From IMG/VR virus record IMGVR_UViG_2713896791_000013: 4,516 nt of DNA. The stretch is one strand, 5' to 3'. A program made the position numbers and the translations under genes. Each line of letters begins with the position of its first letter. The first letter of the stretch is position 1. This stretch comes from a virus. Lineage: Duplodnaviria; Heunggongvirae; Uroviricota; Caudoviricetes. This document shows positions 1 to 4,516 of this stretch, in pieces. The notes beneath the pieces are model-generated. The model did no database searches. It was not told the origin of the DNA and saw nothing but the letters and a program-made list of their open reading frames with translations.

Positions 1-17
1 ACCTTGGTTTAAGAGAA
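1..17. promoter_or_regulatory. Partial crossover site for a serine invertase (left, cix/gix/hix-like); outer half lies beyond the window
   Basis: Bottom strand reads TTCTCTTAAACC-AA-GGT. This fits the recalled hixL (TTCTTGAAAACC AA GGT...) and gixL (TTCCTGTAAACC GA GGT...) pattern of TTC....AAACC, a 2-bp core, then GGT. The site sits at the outer boundary of the repeat, as in P1. Confidence 0.6.
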
Positions 18-681
18 CTCGGTACCAGCGGTGAAAAGATCCCCCTGTTGAGCACGGCTAACACATGGAGTGCGCGCCAGACTTTCAACGGCGGGATCAC
101 CGGGGCGCTGACAGGGAACGCCGACACCGCGACGAAATTGAAAACAGCCATAAACATTAATGGCGTCAGGTTCGATGGTTCTGGTGACATTAATATCAAT
201 ACTCTGGTATCGCGCGGTCGCGTAACGGCCTTGGAGGCGAATGCACAGGGAACATCCGGGATTCAGCTGTATGAGGCATACAACAATGGCTACCCTTCCC
301 CCTATGGCAATGTGCTTCACCTTAAAGGTGCCACCGCTGCTGGCGAAGGTGAGTTATTCATTGGCTGGAGTGGCACGAGCGGTGCCCATGCGCCCGTACA
401 TATCCGTTCGCGGCGGGATACTGATTCTGCCAACTGGTCTGAATGGGCGCAGGTCTATACGTCAAAAGATTCAATTCCCGGCGTCAATGCCAAAGGGGAT
501 CAGGATACTTCCGGCAATGCTGCTACGGCGACCAGATTGCAGACGGCGCGCACTATTAACGGTGTTTCGTTTGATGGTTCTAAAAACATTGAGCTAACGG
601 CTGAAAATTTAAATCTTGAGCAAACCGTAGAACTAGCCGCTGGATCATTGCAGAAAAACCAGAACGGCGCGGATATTCCTG
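1..681. repeat. Left inverted repeat (IR-L), 681 bp, coding for the shared part of the tail fibre
   Basis: Reverse complement of 3836..4516, checked directly at both ends. Three overlapping frames give identical mirrored ORF translations (9..320 with 4197..4508, 241..597 with 3920..4276, and the main fibre frame), which implies nucleotide identity throughout. First mismatch is at 682 (g) versus the complement of 3835 (a). Confidence 0.9.
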
Positions 682-1562
682 GAAAAGATACCTTCACTAA
701 AAATATTGGTGCATGTCGCGCTTTTCACAGTTCTATTAGTACAGGTGCAGGGAACTGGACAACGGCACAATTGATTGAATGGCTGGATTCTCAAGGGGCA
801 TTCAATCACCCATACTGGATGTGCAAATGTTCATGGTCATACGGCAATAATAAAATTATAACCGATACTGGCTGTGGAACTATTCATCTTGCAGGTTGCG
901 TTGTTGAGGTTATGGGTAATAAAGGTGCCATGACCATCCGTGTAACAACGCCAAGCACTTCCACCGGTGGCGGAACCACTAATGCGCAATTTACGTATAT
1001 AAACCACGGTGGAGATTACGCACCAGGCTGGCGGCGTGACTACAGTACCAAAAATCAGCAGCCTGCATTTGCTTTAGGGCAGACAGGAAGCACTGTTGGA
1101 AATGACAAAGCTGTTGGATGGAACTCAATTAGTGGCGTTTATAATGCGACTATTGGTGGAGCATCAACATTGATTCTTCACTTTAATATGAATGCGGGGA
1201 GTTGCCCTGCTGTTCAGTTCCGTGTGAATTATAAAAATGGCGGTATTTTTTATCGTTCAGCGCGAGATGGTTACGGATTCGAAGCTGACTGGTCAGAATT
1301 CTACACCACAACACGTAAGCCATCAGCGGGAGATGTTGGTGCATATACCAAAGCAGAATGTAATTCACGATTTATTACAGGTATTCGATTAGGTACAAAA
1401 TCGTCAGTGCAAACATGGAATGGTCCTGGTTGGAACGATAAATCTGGTTATGTTGTTACTGCCTCAATCAACTCAAATAAGGACGAACTTATTGATACAA
1501 CTCAGGCAAGACCTGTGCAGTATTGTATCAATGGCACTTGGTATAACGCGGGAAGTATTTAA
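3..1562 (+). CDS. Tail fibre protein, C-terminal portion, variant A (5'-partial). Shared region is encoded in IR-L; variant-specific receptor-binding domain from 682.
   Basis: Long ORF ending at TAA 1560..1562. The track's 'M' at 48 is a TTG codon, and the frame has no stop back to nt 3, so the gene starts upstream of the window. Contains the fibre-like repeat motif GNA.TAT.L.TA..INGV.FDGS twice. Followed 2 nt later by a chaperone gene. Confidence 0.85.
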
Positions 1563-1564
1563 TT

Positions 1565-2098
1565 ATGCAGCATTTGAAAAACATCAGATCCGGAAATCCA
1601 AAAACTGTTGAACAATATGAATTGACGCGACAATTCGGTGTTGTCTGGTTGTATTCTGAGGACGATAAAAACTGGTATGAGGAACAAAAGAACTTTCAGG
1701 ATGACACTATAAAAATTGCTTACACATCAGATGGAATTATTGTGGCTATAGATAAAGACGTATCTACAATAAATCCAGAAGGTTTAAGCGTTGTTGAGGT
1801 TGCTGACATTACTGCAAATCGCCGTGCTGACATTTCGGGTAAATGGATGTTCAAAGATGGCGTAGTGATAAAGCGAACTTATACCGAGGAGGAACAGAGG
1901 CAGCAGGCAGAGAATGAAAAACAAAGCCTGTTGCAACTTGTCAGGGATAAAACCCAGCTATGGGACTCACAGCTACGGCTGGGTATCATTTCAGACGAGA
2001 ATAAACAAAAATTAATCGAGTGGATGCTCTATGCGCAGAAAGTCGAATCTACAGACACCTCCAGCCTGCCAGTAACGTTTCCCGAACAACCAGAATGA
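1565..2098 (+). CDS. Tail fibre assembly chaperone (Mu U / P1 U / Tfa family), cognate to variant A
   Basis: 177-aa ORF with ATG at 1565, 2 nt after the fibre stop, and a GGGAAG Shine-Dalgarno-like sequence at 1550..1555. N-terminus MQHLKNI..GN.KT.EQYELT...W.YSED.KNWYEE is recognised from memory as typical of enterobacterial phage tail-fibre assembly proteins. Paralogous to the 2126..2653 ORF. Confidence 0.85.
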
Positions 2099-2101
2099 GA
2101 G

Positions 2102-2121
2102 AAGGCCCGCTATCGGGCCTT
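2102..2121. terminator. Candidate bidirectional terminator hairpin between the convergent chaperone genes
   Basis: Perfect 8-bp GC-rich stem AAGGCCCG / CGGGCCTT with 4-nt loop CTAT, in the 27-bp gap between stop codons at 2096..2098 (+) and 2126..2128 (-). Followed by AATTTT on the + strand; the U-tract is weak in both directions. Confidence 0.5.
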
Positions 2122-2125
2122 AATT

Positions 2126-2653
2126 TTACTCTGGTTTTTGTGGCCATTCTGGCTTTGCCGTATCCACGCGGCTGACCAGAACGCTGTAGCGTTCCCAGGC
2201 TTCCAGTCGTGTACGTTCCTCATCTGTTGCCATATTCAGCCTGACAGCGCGCTCCAGTGGCTGAATAACGCTTTCCGCATCGGAAAGTAACGCGGCCTTT
2301 TGTGATTCGGCCTGTTGTTGCTGTTCTTCTGCCGTATAAATCCGTTTAACCACAGCTCCGTCCTTAAACATCCACTTACCGGAATCATCGGCCCGACGAT
2401 TGGCTGTTATATCGGGGACTTCAACAACGCTAAAGCCTTCAGGATTAAGTGTGGAGGCATCTTTAGTGATGGCTACAATAATATTATTTTCATCGTAAAC
2501 AATCTTTATTGTGTCTGGCTGAAAATTCTTTACCTCTTCATACCAGTTCTTCCCGTCTTCAGAGTAAAGCCAGATAACTCCGTGCTTCTTTGTTAACTCA
2601 TACTGCTCCGGTGTTTTAGCATTACCAATTTTTATGTTCTTTAAGTGGATCAT
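2126..2653 (-). CDS. Tail fibre assembly chaperone (Mu U' / P1 U' / Tfa family), cognate to variant B
   Basis: 175-aa ORF on the minus strand, with its ATG (2651..2653) 1 nt after the variant B fibre stop (2655..2657). About 74% identical to the 1565..2098 product over the first ~123 residues (counted by hand); the last ~55 residues are divergent. Confidence 0.85.
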
Positions 2654-2654
2654 A

Positions 2655-4514
2655 TTAAACGCTCGCTACATTATACCAGGTGCCATTTATATATTTTTGA
2701 ACGGGTCTGTAATAAACGCCAGCTATATTATCGGCAGAATTGGACCCTGTATCCTGAACATTTATACCAGACAATACATGACCTGAAGGGCACTGGAAGT
2801 TCCATGTTTGCCAGTTGTTCACACCATAATATTGCTGTGAGCCAAGCCGAACATCTTTCACATATCGGGAATCAATGTTACCCCAGTTGCTTGGTTGTAT
2901 CTGACCGTTTACAGCAAATATCACCGAGTTATCTGTATTTCGCTGACTATAGAAATGCCAGCCTGAATCATCACCAAGCTCTGCAACAGTTGGTCTTGAC
3001 GAATTTCCCCACAAGTTAAATGATGCATTACGGGCAGCGGTATTTGCACTTGAAAGTGTGAAGAACTTACTTTCCCCAGCCTGAATACCCTTTAATGATC
3101 TTGCTGAACCATTTATAAAGCGGAATACATGCACACCATTAGCATAAGCATCCAGCACCCCATCACCATTTTGTTTAAACCCGGTATCGTTATCTCCTAA
3201 AACTATTGAATTTCCACCCAGGGCATTAGCCGTTCCAATCCCCAGATTTCCGCTAAAAATGGCATTAATACCGAATATTGAGTGAGAACAATAAAACCCT
3301 CGCCCATTGTTAAAATCCAGAATGGCTTGTGCGTTCGTGCTTTCTGTCGCGGGATTAGTTGCTCCCCACTTATATGTTGTTTGACCGACGGTATAATCCT
3401 GAGTTGGAACAATAACCGTTAGCCCTTCTTCAGCAGAAACCCGCACAGGAAAAGCCCTGCCTTCAACGTAAAAAACGCTGCATACATCATCTTCTTTAAG
3501 GCTTGTTACAATGGAATGGATTGCGCGCTCATTAGTCTGATACGTCGAAAAATAACCTGCCGCATATGAACCACGATCAGTCCAGCCACCAGGCATTACC
3601 ATTCCATTGAATTCGCAGTTATTCATTTCGTAATTACCACCGGCAGATGTGGTCGTTATAATCACTCTGGAAGCCAGCTCGCCAGTGCTGCCTGTGGAAC
3701 GCTGGAAAATAACTGGATACCACTTTCCACCAACAGCATTAGACGGCGCGTTAAATACGTACTGCCGCATTCCTTTTTTCTTATCCACCTCGCCTTTGCT
3801 GTAAACATTAATGTTACTCAGGAAGCGATCTTTATCAGGAATATCCGCGCCGTTCTGGTTTTTCTGCAATGATCCAGCGGCTAGTTCTACGGTTTGCTCA
3901 AGATTTAAATTTTCAGCCGTTAGCTCAATGTTTTTAGAACCATCAAACGAAACACCGTTAATAGTGCGCGCCGTCTGCAATCTGGTCGCCGTAGCAGCAT
4001 TGCCGGAAGTATCCTGATCCCCTTTGGCATTGACGCCGGGAATTGAATCTTTTGACGTATAGACCTGCGCCCATTCAGACCAGTTGGCAGAATCAGTATC
4101 CCGCCGCGAACGGATATGTACGGGCGCATGGGCACCGCTCGTGCCACTCCAGCCAATGAATAACTCACCTTCGCCAGCAGCGGTGGCACCTTTAAGGTGA
4201 AGCACATTGCCATAGGGGGAAGGGTAGCCATTGTTGTATGCCTCATACAGCTGAATCCCGGATGTTCCCTGTGCATTCGCCTCCAAGGCCGTTACGCGAC
4301 CGCGCGATACCAGAGTATTGATATTAATGTCACCAGAACCATCGAACCTGACGCCATTAATGTTTATGGCTGTTTTCAATTTCGTCGCGGTGTCGGCGTT
4401 CCCTGTCAGCGCCCCGGTGATCCCGCCGTTGAAAGTCTGGCGCGCACTCCATGTGTTAGCCGTGCTCAACAGGGGGATCTTTTCACCGCTGGTACCGAGT
4501 TCTCTTAAACCAAG
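2655..4514 (-). CDS. Tail fibre protein, C-terminal portion, variant B (5'-partial). Shared region is encoded in IR-R; variant-specific domain 2658..3835.
   Basis: Long minus-strand ORF ending at TAA (complement of 2655..2657). Identical to variant A through residue P211 of the track translation, then unrelated. Frame is open to the window edge; the track start at 4469 is TTG. Variable domain is about 100 aa longer than A. Confidence 0.85.
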
Positions 4515-4516
4515 GT
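3836..4516. repeat. Right inverted repeat (IR-R), 681 bp, mirror of IR-L
   Basis: Same evidence as IR-L; position p on the left corresponds to 4517-p on the right. Confidence 0.9.
4500..4516. promoter_or_regulatory. Partial crossover site for a serine invertase (right), inverted relative to the left site
   Basis: Top strand reads TTCTCTTAAACC-AA-GGT at 4500..4516. The core dinucleotide is AA here and TT at the left end, the inverted orientation needed for inversion rather than deletion. Confidence 0.6.

Follow-up and report, generated by a model that had tools for sequence, protein, structure and literature searches.

The DNA analysed here, a stretch of 4,516 nucleotides that we refer to as the window, is very probably an invertible tail-fibre region, the C segment, from a P1/D6-like plasmid prophage of E. 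coli, in which the invertase Cin would switch the reading between two fibre tips. As judged by sequence comparison, the segment is homologous to the C segment of phage P1, is not phage P1 itself and represents a mosaic on D6-like and P1-like plasmid prophages, with an interior that is closest to the G segment of a Mu-like prophage. The switch mechanism is ordinary and well known; the allele is new, and the unusual part is one of the two tips only. The plasmids pUTAK-19-1 and pUTAK-25-1 are its nearest relatives and differ from the window by 2 SNPs, one at position 587 and one at 1799. Neither cin, the enhancer, a promoter nor the N-terminus of the fibre lies inside the window, and the descriptions of flank elements (cin, enhancer, Sc) given below were taken from relatives that are at least 2 SNPs away from it.

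Architecture of the segment

The two ends of the window are reverse complements of each other. Comparison of the window with its own reverse complement revealed identity of the first 681 bases, the length that the initial annotation had given, and the first mismatches of the arm are located at positions 682, 683, 690 and 691. A repeat search extended the arms to 695 nt at 99% complementarity, separated by 3126 nt (Table 1). Chance cannot account for an exact inverted repeat as long as this. The fibre residues encoded by the repeat are identical in the two versions A and B (226 of 226 amino acids), and the GC content of the repeat is 52% versus 42-45% in the interior.

At its outer ends, each repeat carries part of a recombination site, which is identical to the corresponding part of cixL and cixR of P1. 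Of the 26 bp of each cix site, the 9 outermost nt fall outside the window. The full sites are present in the nearest relatives (L001 and L002), 2 SNPs away, and are identical to cixL and cixR of P1 as well as to those of D6. By homology to the annotated P1 position 32224/32225, crossover is placed at 4|5 and 4512|4513 of the window. The invertible DNA comprises positions 5-4512 (4508 bp) and, owing to the shared ending ACC of the two outer cix half-sites, the window overshoots it by 4 nt on each side. The earlier description of the window as exactly one invertible cassette has to be corrected for the ends, which reach 4 nt too far on either side. A search for further cix- or gix-like sites in the window and 100-nt flanks (cixL, cixR and gix, with up to 35% mismatch) found none besides the two terminal sites.

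Table 1. Coordinates of the features of the C segment within the window
Feature	Position	Strand	Remarks
Left long inverted repeat	1..695	+	Exact to 681; encodes 226 fibre residues common to both versions
Left recombination site, partial	1..17	+	Outer half-site 3 nt (ACC), central TT 4-5 (crossover), inner half-site GGTTTAAGAGAA (12 nt)
Cassette A, promoterless 3' part of fibre gene S	3..1562	+	519 codons; frame open from 3, stop at 1562
Chaperone of A, U'-type tail fibre assembly protein	1565..2098	+	177 aa; Pfam Caudo_TAP, E=1.6e-35
GC-rich hairpin AAGGCCCGCTATCGGGCCTT, probable terminator	2102..2121	.	27-nt gap separating convergent chaperone genes
Chaperone of B, U-type tail fibre assembly protein	2126..2653	-	175 aa; Pfam Caudo_TAP, E=2.3e-37
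Cassette B, promoterless 3' part of fibre gene S	2655..4514	-	619 codons; stop at 2655, frame open to 4514
Right long inverted repeat	3822..4516	-	
Right recombination site, partial	4500..4516	-	Mirrors 1-17; crossover 4512|4513

The content of the segment agrees with the earlier description of two alternative C-terminal fibre domains in opposite orientation, each accompanied by a chaperone gene: there are four open reading frames, two of them with Caudo_TAP matches, arranged as two convergent cassettes. Both fibre frames are open to the ends of the segment and neither Sv part has a start or promoter of its own. Within the segment, 2 promoter-like sites were found versus 7.6 expected. The hairpin between the chaperone genes matches the terminator consensus and likely acts as a bidirectional terminator. 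No RNA family of the Rfam database was detected in the window.

The variable part of cassette A starts at about position 682. It is of the P1 Sv' type, with 265 of 293 amino acids (90%) identical to P1 Sv', and gave matches to Pfam gp37_C and to tail fibre families of PHROGs. Its chaperone U' is 83% identical to U' of P1 and 98.9% identical to U' of the Mu-like prophage. The chaperone U of cassette B shares 92.6% identity with U of P1.

Cassette B has a variable part of 393 aa in the place of P1 Sv (~320 aa), to which it shows 29% amino acid identity, and neither P1 nor D6 matches the region 2700-3822 of the window at the nucleotide level. The fibres of the P2-like phages 9W/P22H4 share 57% identity with this variable part, and gpH of P2 shares 63% with its last ~200 aa. 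A much closer match, at 97.6% amino acid identity, is the silent fibre copy found in a Mu-like prophage (L004). In Pfam no family above threshold was obtained for cassette B, and PHROGs returned generic tail-fibre families only. A sequence search against the PDB matched only the conserved C-terminal ~95 residues, to the Mu fibre protein S (5yvq). The tip is not of the Sv type of P1, D6 or Mu and is classified as a P2-H-like mosaic.

Flanking genes and proposed mode of inversion

In the relatives, a serine invertase of 186 aa, Cin, directly adjoins one end of the segment and contains the Resolvase and HTH_7 domains. A gene for an invertase of about 190 aa had been expected near a flank, and it is found there in the nearest relatives. 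This Cin is identical to P1 Cin at 182 of 186 positions (98%) and to D6 Cin at 184 of 186, and the stop codon of cin is located inside the outer cix half-site, the same as in P1. The recombinational enhancer is identical to that of P1 in 68 of 72 positions. At the other end of the segment, the constant part of S enters in frame in both orientations, as had been anticipated for the 5' part of the fibre gene. The fusion of S to A in L002 is an uninterrupted frame of 997 aa and that of S to B in L001 comprises 1097 aa, with a common prefix of 704 aa. These fusions bear out the earlier proposal that inversion would join an external fibre N-terminus to either A or B, and the gene calls in 10 further loci agree with this layout.

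The flanks of the closest carriers are 97% identical to D6, and their backbone has no nucleotide match to P1 beyond cin..Sc. The P1 late promoter LPs had no convincing match in the D6-like flank; the best one has 6/19 mismatches and is situated at an unrelated place.

The inversion mechanism of P1 has been described (PMC6906374, PMC13172314, bioRxiv 10.1101/2022.07.24.501295, PMC6799933), and the classical facts on P1 used here were drawn from its GenBank annotation and from the first three of these sources. In the bioRxiv study, P1 fibre genes were supplied in trans to a delta-S-cin lysogen. The C segment is not mentioned in PMC9024508. For the segment under study, we propose that Cin, encoded just outside one end and with the enhancer in the 5' coding region of its own gene, would perform strand exchange at the central dinucleotide of two 26-bp cix sites, which lie in inverted orientation at the outer limits of the 681-bp repeats. 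Outside the other end, the constant N-terminal part of S (478 codons in D6-like relatives) would be located together with R and the putative operon promoter. S would read through cix and the repeat, with its 226 shared codons, into whichever cassette faces it. Orientation 1 would then give a 997-aa fibre with tip A of the P1 Sv' type and the chaperone U', and orientation 2 a 1097-aa fibre with the P2-H-like mosaic tip B and the chaperone U. The cassette facing cin would be silent, having neither start codon nor promoter of its own. By this flipping of fibre cassettes, a lysogen population would therefore shed virions of two putative receptor specificities.

It is also conceivable, albeit unlikely, that the segment inverts mainly by homologous recombination between the 681-bp repeats through the host RecA, with Cin and cix being dispensable or inactive. 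Perfect identity over 681 bp is an ample substrate for general recombination, and homogeneous arms are themselves a sign of recombination or gene conversion, the arms of D6 having diverged to ~84%. As a crossover anywhere in identical repeats leads to the same product, the sequence cannot separate inversion by Cin from inversion by RecA. However, Cin is intact and, like the enhancer, highly conserved, and P1, D6 and the plasmids considered here do not differ in either 26-bp cix site despite diverged backbones. Such conservation of cin, enhancer and cix suggests that the site-specific system is under purifying selection. Furthermore, D6 retains its cix sites though its repeats match poorly. Inversion by Cin is thus the reading that we prefer.

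Orientation of the segment among related plasmids

Both orientations, as predicted for a switch of this kind, occur in otherwise identical plasmids represented by finished assemblies. The segments of pUTAK-19-1 and pUTAK-25-1 are identical and lie in opposite orientation, with 6000/6000 and 5999/6000 matching bases in the flanks. In a set of 93,415-bp plasmids, CP057047/052 and CP057059 carry the segment in opposite orientation, and in a set of 97,648-bp plasmids 25-07233 is opposite to three others. Across the relatives, the orientations are split 6:6 (12 loci) and, in a second, overlapping census, 8:7. All of these orientations are taken from assemblies and not from reads; opposite orientations could in principle reflect an arbitrary resolution of the 695-bp repeat by the assembler or the majority call from a mixed culture. 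In a further relative, CP031917, the segment is 14 bp shorter and the annotation lists cin simply as an HTH-domain protein.

A loss of inversion, in which case the orientations in the databases would be assembly artefacts or ancient fixed states, appears very improbable. The repeat exceeds the length of short reads, so that short-read and hybrid assemblers can place the interior arbitrarily, and the shortened segment and plain cin annotation of CP031917 could be read as traces of a frozen relic. Against this stand three independent sets of otherwise identical plasmids in which the orientation is the sole difference, the overall split of ~1:1 and the intactness of all functional parts in most relatives.

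Relation to known inversion systems

The P1 C segment (NC_005856 32225-36480) has the order cin, cix, ~0.6-kb repeat, Sv'-U', then U-Sv in the opposite direction, repeat, cix and Sc-R, which is common to both systems. The segment studied here is colinear with it, and position 1 of the window corresponds to P1 32221. Differences exist in the length of the segment (4508 bp versus 4256 bp in P1) and of the repeat (681-695 nt versus 636 nt (98%) in P1), with ~96% nucleotide identity between the P1 repeat and that of the window. Altogether, the window is covered by P1 to 71% at 89% identity. Phage P1 (Punavirus P1) was considered as the source and is ruled out by these values, by the absence of cassette B from P1 and by the D6-like flanks. 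The initial annotation had regarded the choice between P1, a P1-like plasmid prophage and a new chimera as undecidable from the sequence. The comparisons made here settle this choice in favour of a mosaic other than P1, with D6/P1-like carriers and a Mu-like interior.

The inversion region of D6 (MF356679 32139-36423) has the same gene order, and its cixL and cixR are annotated by homology. Unlike those of the window, the D6 repeats are degenerate, with an exact run of only 28 nt; the D6 interior is only 84% identical over A-U'-U and is devoid of cassette B. That the tail-fibre inversion region diverges among D6-like plasmids is known from earlier work (PMC6799933).

The G segment of Mu follows the same two-cassette logic with homologous S and U genes. 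The recombinases Cin, Gin, Pin and Min form one family. Such G segments also occur in Mu-like chromosomal prophages (e.g. NZ_CM129886, 4.697-4.700 Mb), and the Mu-like prophage compared here has the same A/U'/U/B set as the window, at 93.8% nucleotide identity. In contrast to the window, the repeats measure only 34 nt in Mu and 92 nt (88%) in L004, each gix site lies deeper in the S gene than cix, by ~600 bp, and the flanks carry gin-com-mom. A classification of the window as a G segment of the Mu type (Gin/gix, with repeats of 34 bp) or as a Min region of the p15B type can be practically dismissed: the high identity to the G segment of the Mu-like chromosomal prophage, with gin, com and mom adjoining, does extend over positions 619-3898, but the gix-homologous position (~598-623) is degenerate, with ATT..AAT instead of the ACC..GGT core, the sole sites are of the P1 cix type and mark the outer limits of the 681-bp repeats, the flanks in the relatives are of the D6/P1 type and not of Mu, and two cassettes with only two sites do not make a multi-site shufflon or p15B Min region. 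The P1-type design, which had been favoured over Mu G for its long repeats, is hence upheld by the P1-identical cix sites and the degenerate gix position as well as by the P1 repeat length.

Biological significance

As the mechanism is a textbook one, our results reveal nothing new about the working of DNA inversion switches. They are of modest practical use. Public annotations treat the silent cassette as a gene in its own right, name it 'tail fiber protein' or 'phage tail protein' and let it begin at an arbitrary internal position. Invertibility was unmarked in all plasmid and genome records viewed; D6 does have annotated cix sites. Since the region is not marked as invertible, genome comparisons can misread differences in orientation as rearrangements.

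With regard to its origin, there is about an even chance that the complete interior (A-U'-U-B) was transferred en bloc, in one direction or the other, between the G segment of a Mu-like prophage and a C segment of the P1/D6 kind, with recombination in conserved sequences bordering the cassettes, that B arrived as a new tip and that the repeats were homogenised afterwards. If this block transfer took place, phage-plasmids of bovine and STEC E. coli would have gained with tip B a receptor specificity that is not described for P1, D6 or Mu, and the homogenised 681-bp repeats would record a recent gene conversion after the exchange. Cassette B occurs in phage-plasmids of the P1/D6-like kind as well as in Mu-like prophages; the E. 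coli hosts came from cattle, pigs and human infections. The presence of this uncharacterised receptor-binding tip in phage-plasmids and prophages may thus bear on host range and on the transduction of resistance genes by phage-plasmids.

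Inverted repeats and alternative cassettes

Comparison of the 4516 bp with their own reverse complement gave exact identity over the first 681 bases, as far inward as the initial annotation had claimed, with mismatches beginning at 682, 683, 690 and 691. Such an inverted repeat cannot be due to chance. It is about 60 nt longer than the P1 repeat (636 nt), because the B-type and A-type cassettes have a further linker of about 20 residues in common, which is also present in the Mu-like prophage. The repeats are approximately 96% identical to those of P1, and the D6 repeats are degenerate, with arms about 84% alike. 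Homogeneity of the arms differs among relatives: it is perfect over 681 bp here (1-681 against 3836-4516), a single mismatch at position 587 separates the arms in the UTAK plasmids, and in other plasmids (among L006-L016) the first mismatch lies at 19 or 91. Such variation points to gene conversion between the arms within individual lineages. GC content drops from 52% in the repeats (1-681) to 42-45% in the variable parts and chaperone genes (within 682-3835), a step that would fit cassettes of different origin or turnover.

The earlier description of two fibre C-terminal domains in opposite orientation, each with its chaperone, was accurate, as four genes were found (see table). The fibre ORFs A and B are identical in their initial 226 residues and about 31% identical beyond, apart from the C-terminal motif RPVQ.(C/Y)INGTWYN, which they have in common. 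The two Caudo_TAP tail-fibre assembly proteins are 59% identical to one another, which accounts for the 276-nt, 71% inverted repeat I2 detected in the repeat search of the window. The hairpin between their genes probably stops transcription from either direction. Two alternative-frame or antisense ORFs inside the fibre coding frame, present twice because the repeat itself is duplicated, are most likely spurious.

Features of the invertible segment
Feature	Position	Strand	Evidence or remark
Repeat arms	1-695 and 3822-4516	inverted	99% complementarity, 3126 nt spacer (repeat search)
Partial cix	window start		ACC-TT-GGTTTAAGAGAA; 3 nt of outer half-site, central dinucleotide, 12-nt inner half-site
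Cassette A fibre C-terminal ORF	open from 3, stop 1562	+	ORF and tail-fibre PHROG match
Cassette A chaperone (U'), 177 aa	1565-2098	+	Caudo_TAP, E = 1.6e-35
GC-rich hairpin	2102-2121		between convergent chaperone genes
Cassette B chaperone (U), 175 aa	2126-2653	-	Caudo_TAP, E = 2.3e-37
Cassette B fibre C-terminal ORF	stop 2655, open to 4514	-	ORF and tail-fibre PHROG match
gix-homologous position	598-623, mirror 3894-3919		degenerate
Alternative-frame/antisense ORF, 103 aa	9-320	-	mirror copy 4197-4508 (+)
Alternative-frame/antisense ORF, 118 aa	241-597	+	mirror copy 3920-4276 (-)

Flanks and orientation in related plasmids

Closest in the databases are pUTAK-19-1 (CP157128) and pUTAK-25-1 (NZ_CP157120), two E. 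coli plasmids of 92 kb that lie 2 SNPs from the window. In both, the gene of a 186-aa Resolvase+HTH_7 protein directly abuts one segment end, its stop codon lying within the outer half-site of cix, just as it does in P1. This Cin is identical to P1 Cin at 182 and to D6 Cin at 184 of 186 residues, and the 72-bp enhancer in the 5' coding region of cin matches that of P1 at 68 positions. The other end adjoins the constant part of S, followed by R, gene 16 and baseplate genes. S continues uninterrupted into cassette A in pUTAK-25-1 (997-aa fibre) and into cassette B in pUTAK-19-1 (1097-aa fibre); of the common 704-aa prefix, 226 residues are repeat-encoded. Both the serine invertase gene (sought at about 190 aa) and the 5' fibre part expected at the flanks were thus located in the relatives.

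The segments of the two plasmids are identical and lie in opposite orientation relative to flanks that match, over 6 kb each, at 6000/6000 and 5999/6000 bases. Junction-spanning queries (cin end, repeat and 1 kb of A or B) served to sort the other carriers of both cassettes. We found cin beside A in CP157128, CP031917, CP099272, CP057059, CP077462 and 3/4 of the 97,648-bp plasmids, and beside B in CP157120, CP067430, CP057047, CP057052, CP157096, CP076266 and the remaining 1/4. Therefore, two more sets of same-size plasmids (93,415 bp and 97,648 bp) differ in orientation. Direct reading of 12 loci gave a 6:6 split. All these orientations come from finished assemblies rather than reads, and some assemblers may resolve a 695-bp repeat arbitrarily. 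At this level the predicted inversion is supported; what the data demonstrate is the anatomy, the identity of the sites, the in-frame joining of S to each cassette and the existence of both orientations.

Inversion may also be brought about by RecA acting between the perfect repeats, a route that sequence alone does not separate from Cin. Against it stand an undamaged Cin, conservation of the enhancer and cix sites that do not vary across diverged backbones, and for these reasons we argue that a Cin/cix site-specific system is likely maintained. A frozen relic is contradicted by near-identical plasmids in opposite orientations and by the even split among the loci.

Strain FWSEC0003 (O45:H2; NZ_CP031917.1 30377-34878, matches H33/H86/H186) has a segment of 4502 bp, shorter by 14 bp. 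RefSeq lists three tail-fibre fragments there, and at the cin position only a 'helix-turn-helix domain-containing protein'; the switch may be decaying in this strain. Related C segments are interrupted by insertion sequences (ISEc52, ISVsa5) in some plasmids (H57 and H58 from E. albertii, H115 from E. coli GPEC1054). Public annotation presents the silent cassette as a gene of its own, named 'tail fiber protein' or 'phage tail protein' and given an arbitrary start inside the frame (6096-7562 of locus L001 from pUTAK-19-1; 8655-10421 of locus L002 from pUTAK-25-1; window ORF starts TTG 48 and TTG 4469). An invertible region is annotated in no plasmid or genome record that was viewed; the D6 record has cix sites annotated by homology.

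Crossover sites and proposed mechanism

The window aligns colinearly with the invertible C segment annotated in phage P1, window position 1 corresponding to P1 32221. The annotated P1 crossover lies between 32224 and 32225, which places those of the window at 4|5 and 4512|4513. The complete 26-bp sites of the UTAK plasmids, CAATCCTAAACCTTGGTTTAAGAGAA and TTATCCAATACCTTGGTTTAAGAGAA, are identical to P1 cixL and cixR and also to those of D6. With these sites and the long repeats, the P1 C-segment design proposed initially is upheld. A Mu-type G segment is contradicted by the P1-identical cix sites and the degenerate gix-homologous position (CGGCTGAAAATTTAAATCTTGAGCAA versus gix TTATCCAAAACCTCGGTTTACAGGAA), and a multi-site Min-type region by a site scan of the segment, which found no cix- or gix-like sites beyond the terminal two. 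Both cix and gix sit on copies of a repeated fibre peptide motif, in the versions IQYLGL (cix), IQNLGL (gix) and AENLNL (relic at 598-623).

Following the P1 model (P1 record annotation; PMC6906374; PMC13172314; bioRxiv 10.1101/2022.07.24.501295), Cin would act at the two cix sites and invert the intervening DNA. The external constant part Sc would run on into A together with U' or into B together with U, and the cassette facing cin would be silent. We infer Cin rather than RecA as the catalyst, and likewise the promoter and the receptors. Dependence on O-antigen is described for the S' fibre of P1, and dependence on the LPS core for its S fibre (PMC13172314; bioRxiv 10.1101/2022.07.24.501295). 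Cassette A is of the P1 Sv' type (265/293 aa of the variable part identical), and its tip is likely S'-like.

Mosaic origin of the segment

The initial annotation had left a choice between P1, a P1-like plasmid prophage and a chimera. P1 itself is rejected, since its match extends over only 71% of the 4516 bp, at 89% identity; the segment is a mosaic. In the nearest relatives, the flanking DNA agrees with phage D6 at 97% identity and, outside cin to Sc, has no nucleotide match to P1. Among the loci L007-L016, one of which (L010) is a metagenome scaffold, D6-like backbones carry R of 148 aa and gp16 of 281 aa without lydC, and P1-type flanks carry R of 144 aa, gp16 of 278 aa and a 94-aa lydC-like gene; therefore, one segment occurs on two backbones. 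The U' protein is identical on both.

The interior (619-3898) shares 93.8% identity with the G segment of a chromosomal Mu-like prophage (L004) that has gin, com and mom next to it, and whose U' and B variable part are 98.9% and 97.6% identical to ours at the amino acid level. P1 has a U' of 83% identity and no counterpart of B. Identity of cassette B is 29% to P1 or D6 Sv and 57% to fibres of the P2-like phages 9W/P22H4; over the final ~200 aa it is 63% to P2 gpH. The A/U'/U/B set recurs at 88-94% nucleotide identity in Mu-like prophages with adjacent gin, com and mom (NZ_CM129886.1 4691917-4705141, locus 4951-8273 of L004; matches H120, H124, H125), which differ in their short repeats (92 nt at 88%).

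Knowledge of inversion systems of this kind goes back to the 1980s. That the inversion region diverges among P1/D6-like plasmids was already reported (PMC6799933), and GenBank contains near-identical sequences. In the searchable literature we found no published description of this allele, with its P1-type repeats and cix sites around a Mu-like-prophage-type interior carrying tip B. Since this interior is nearer to Mu-like prophages than to P1 or D6, it suggests that G and C segments have exchanged blocks.
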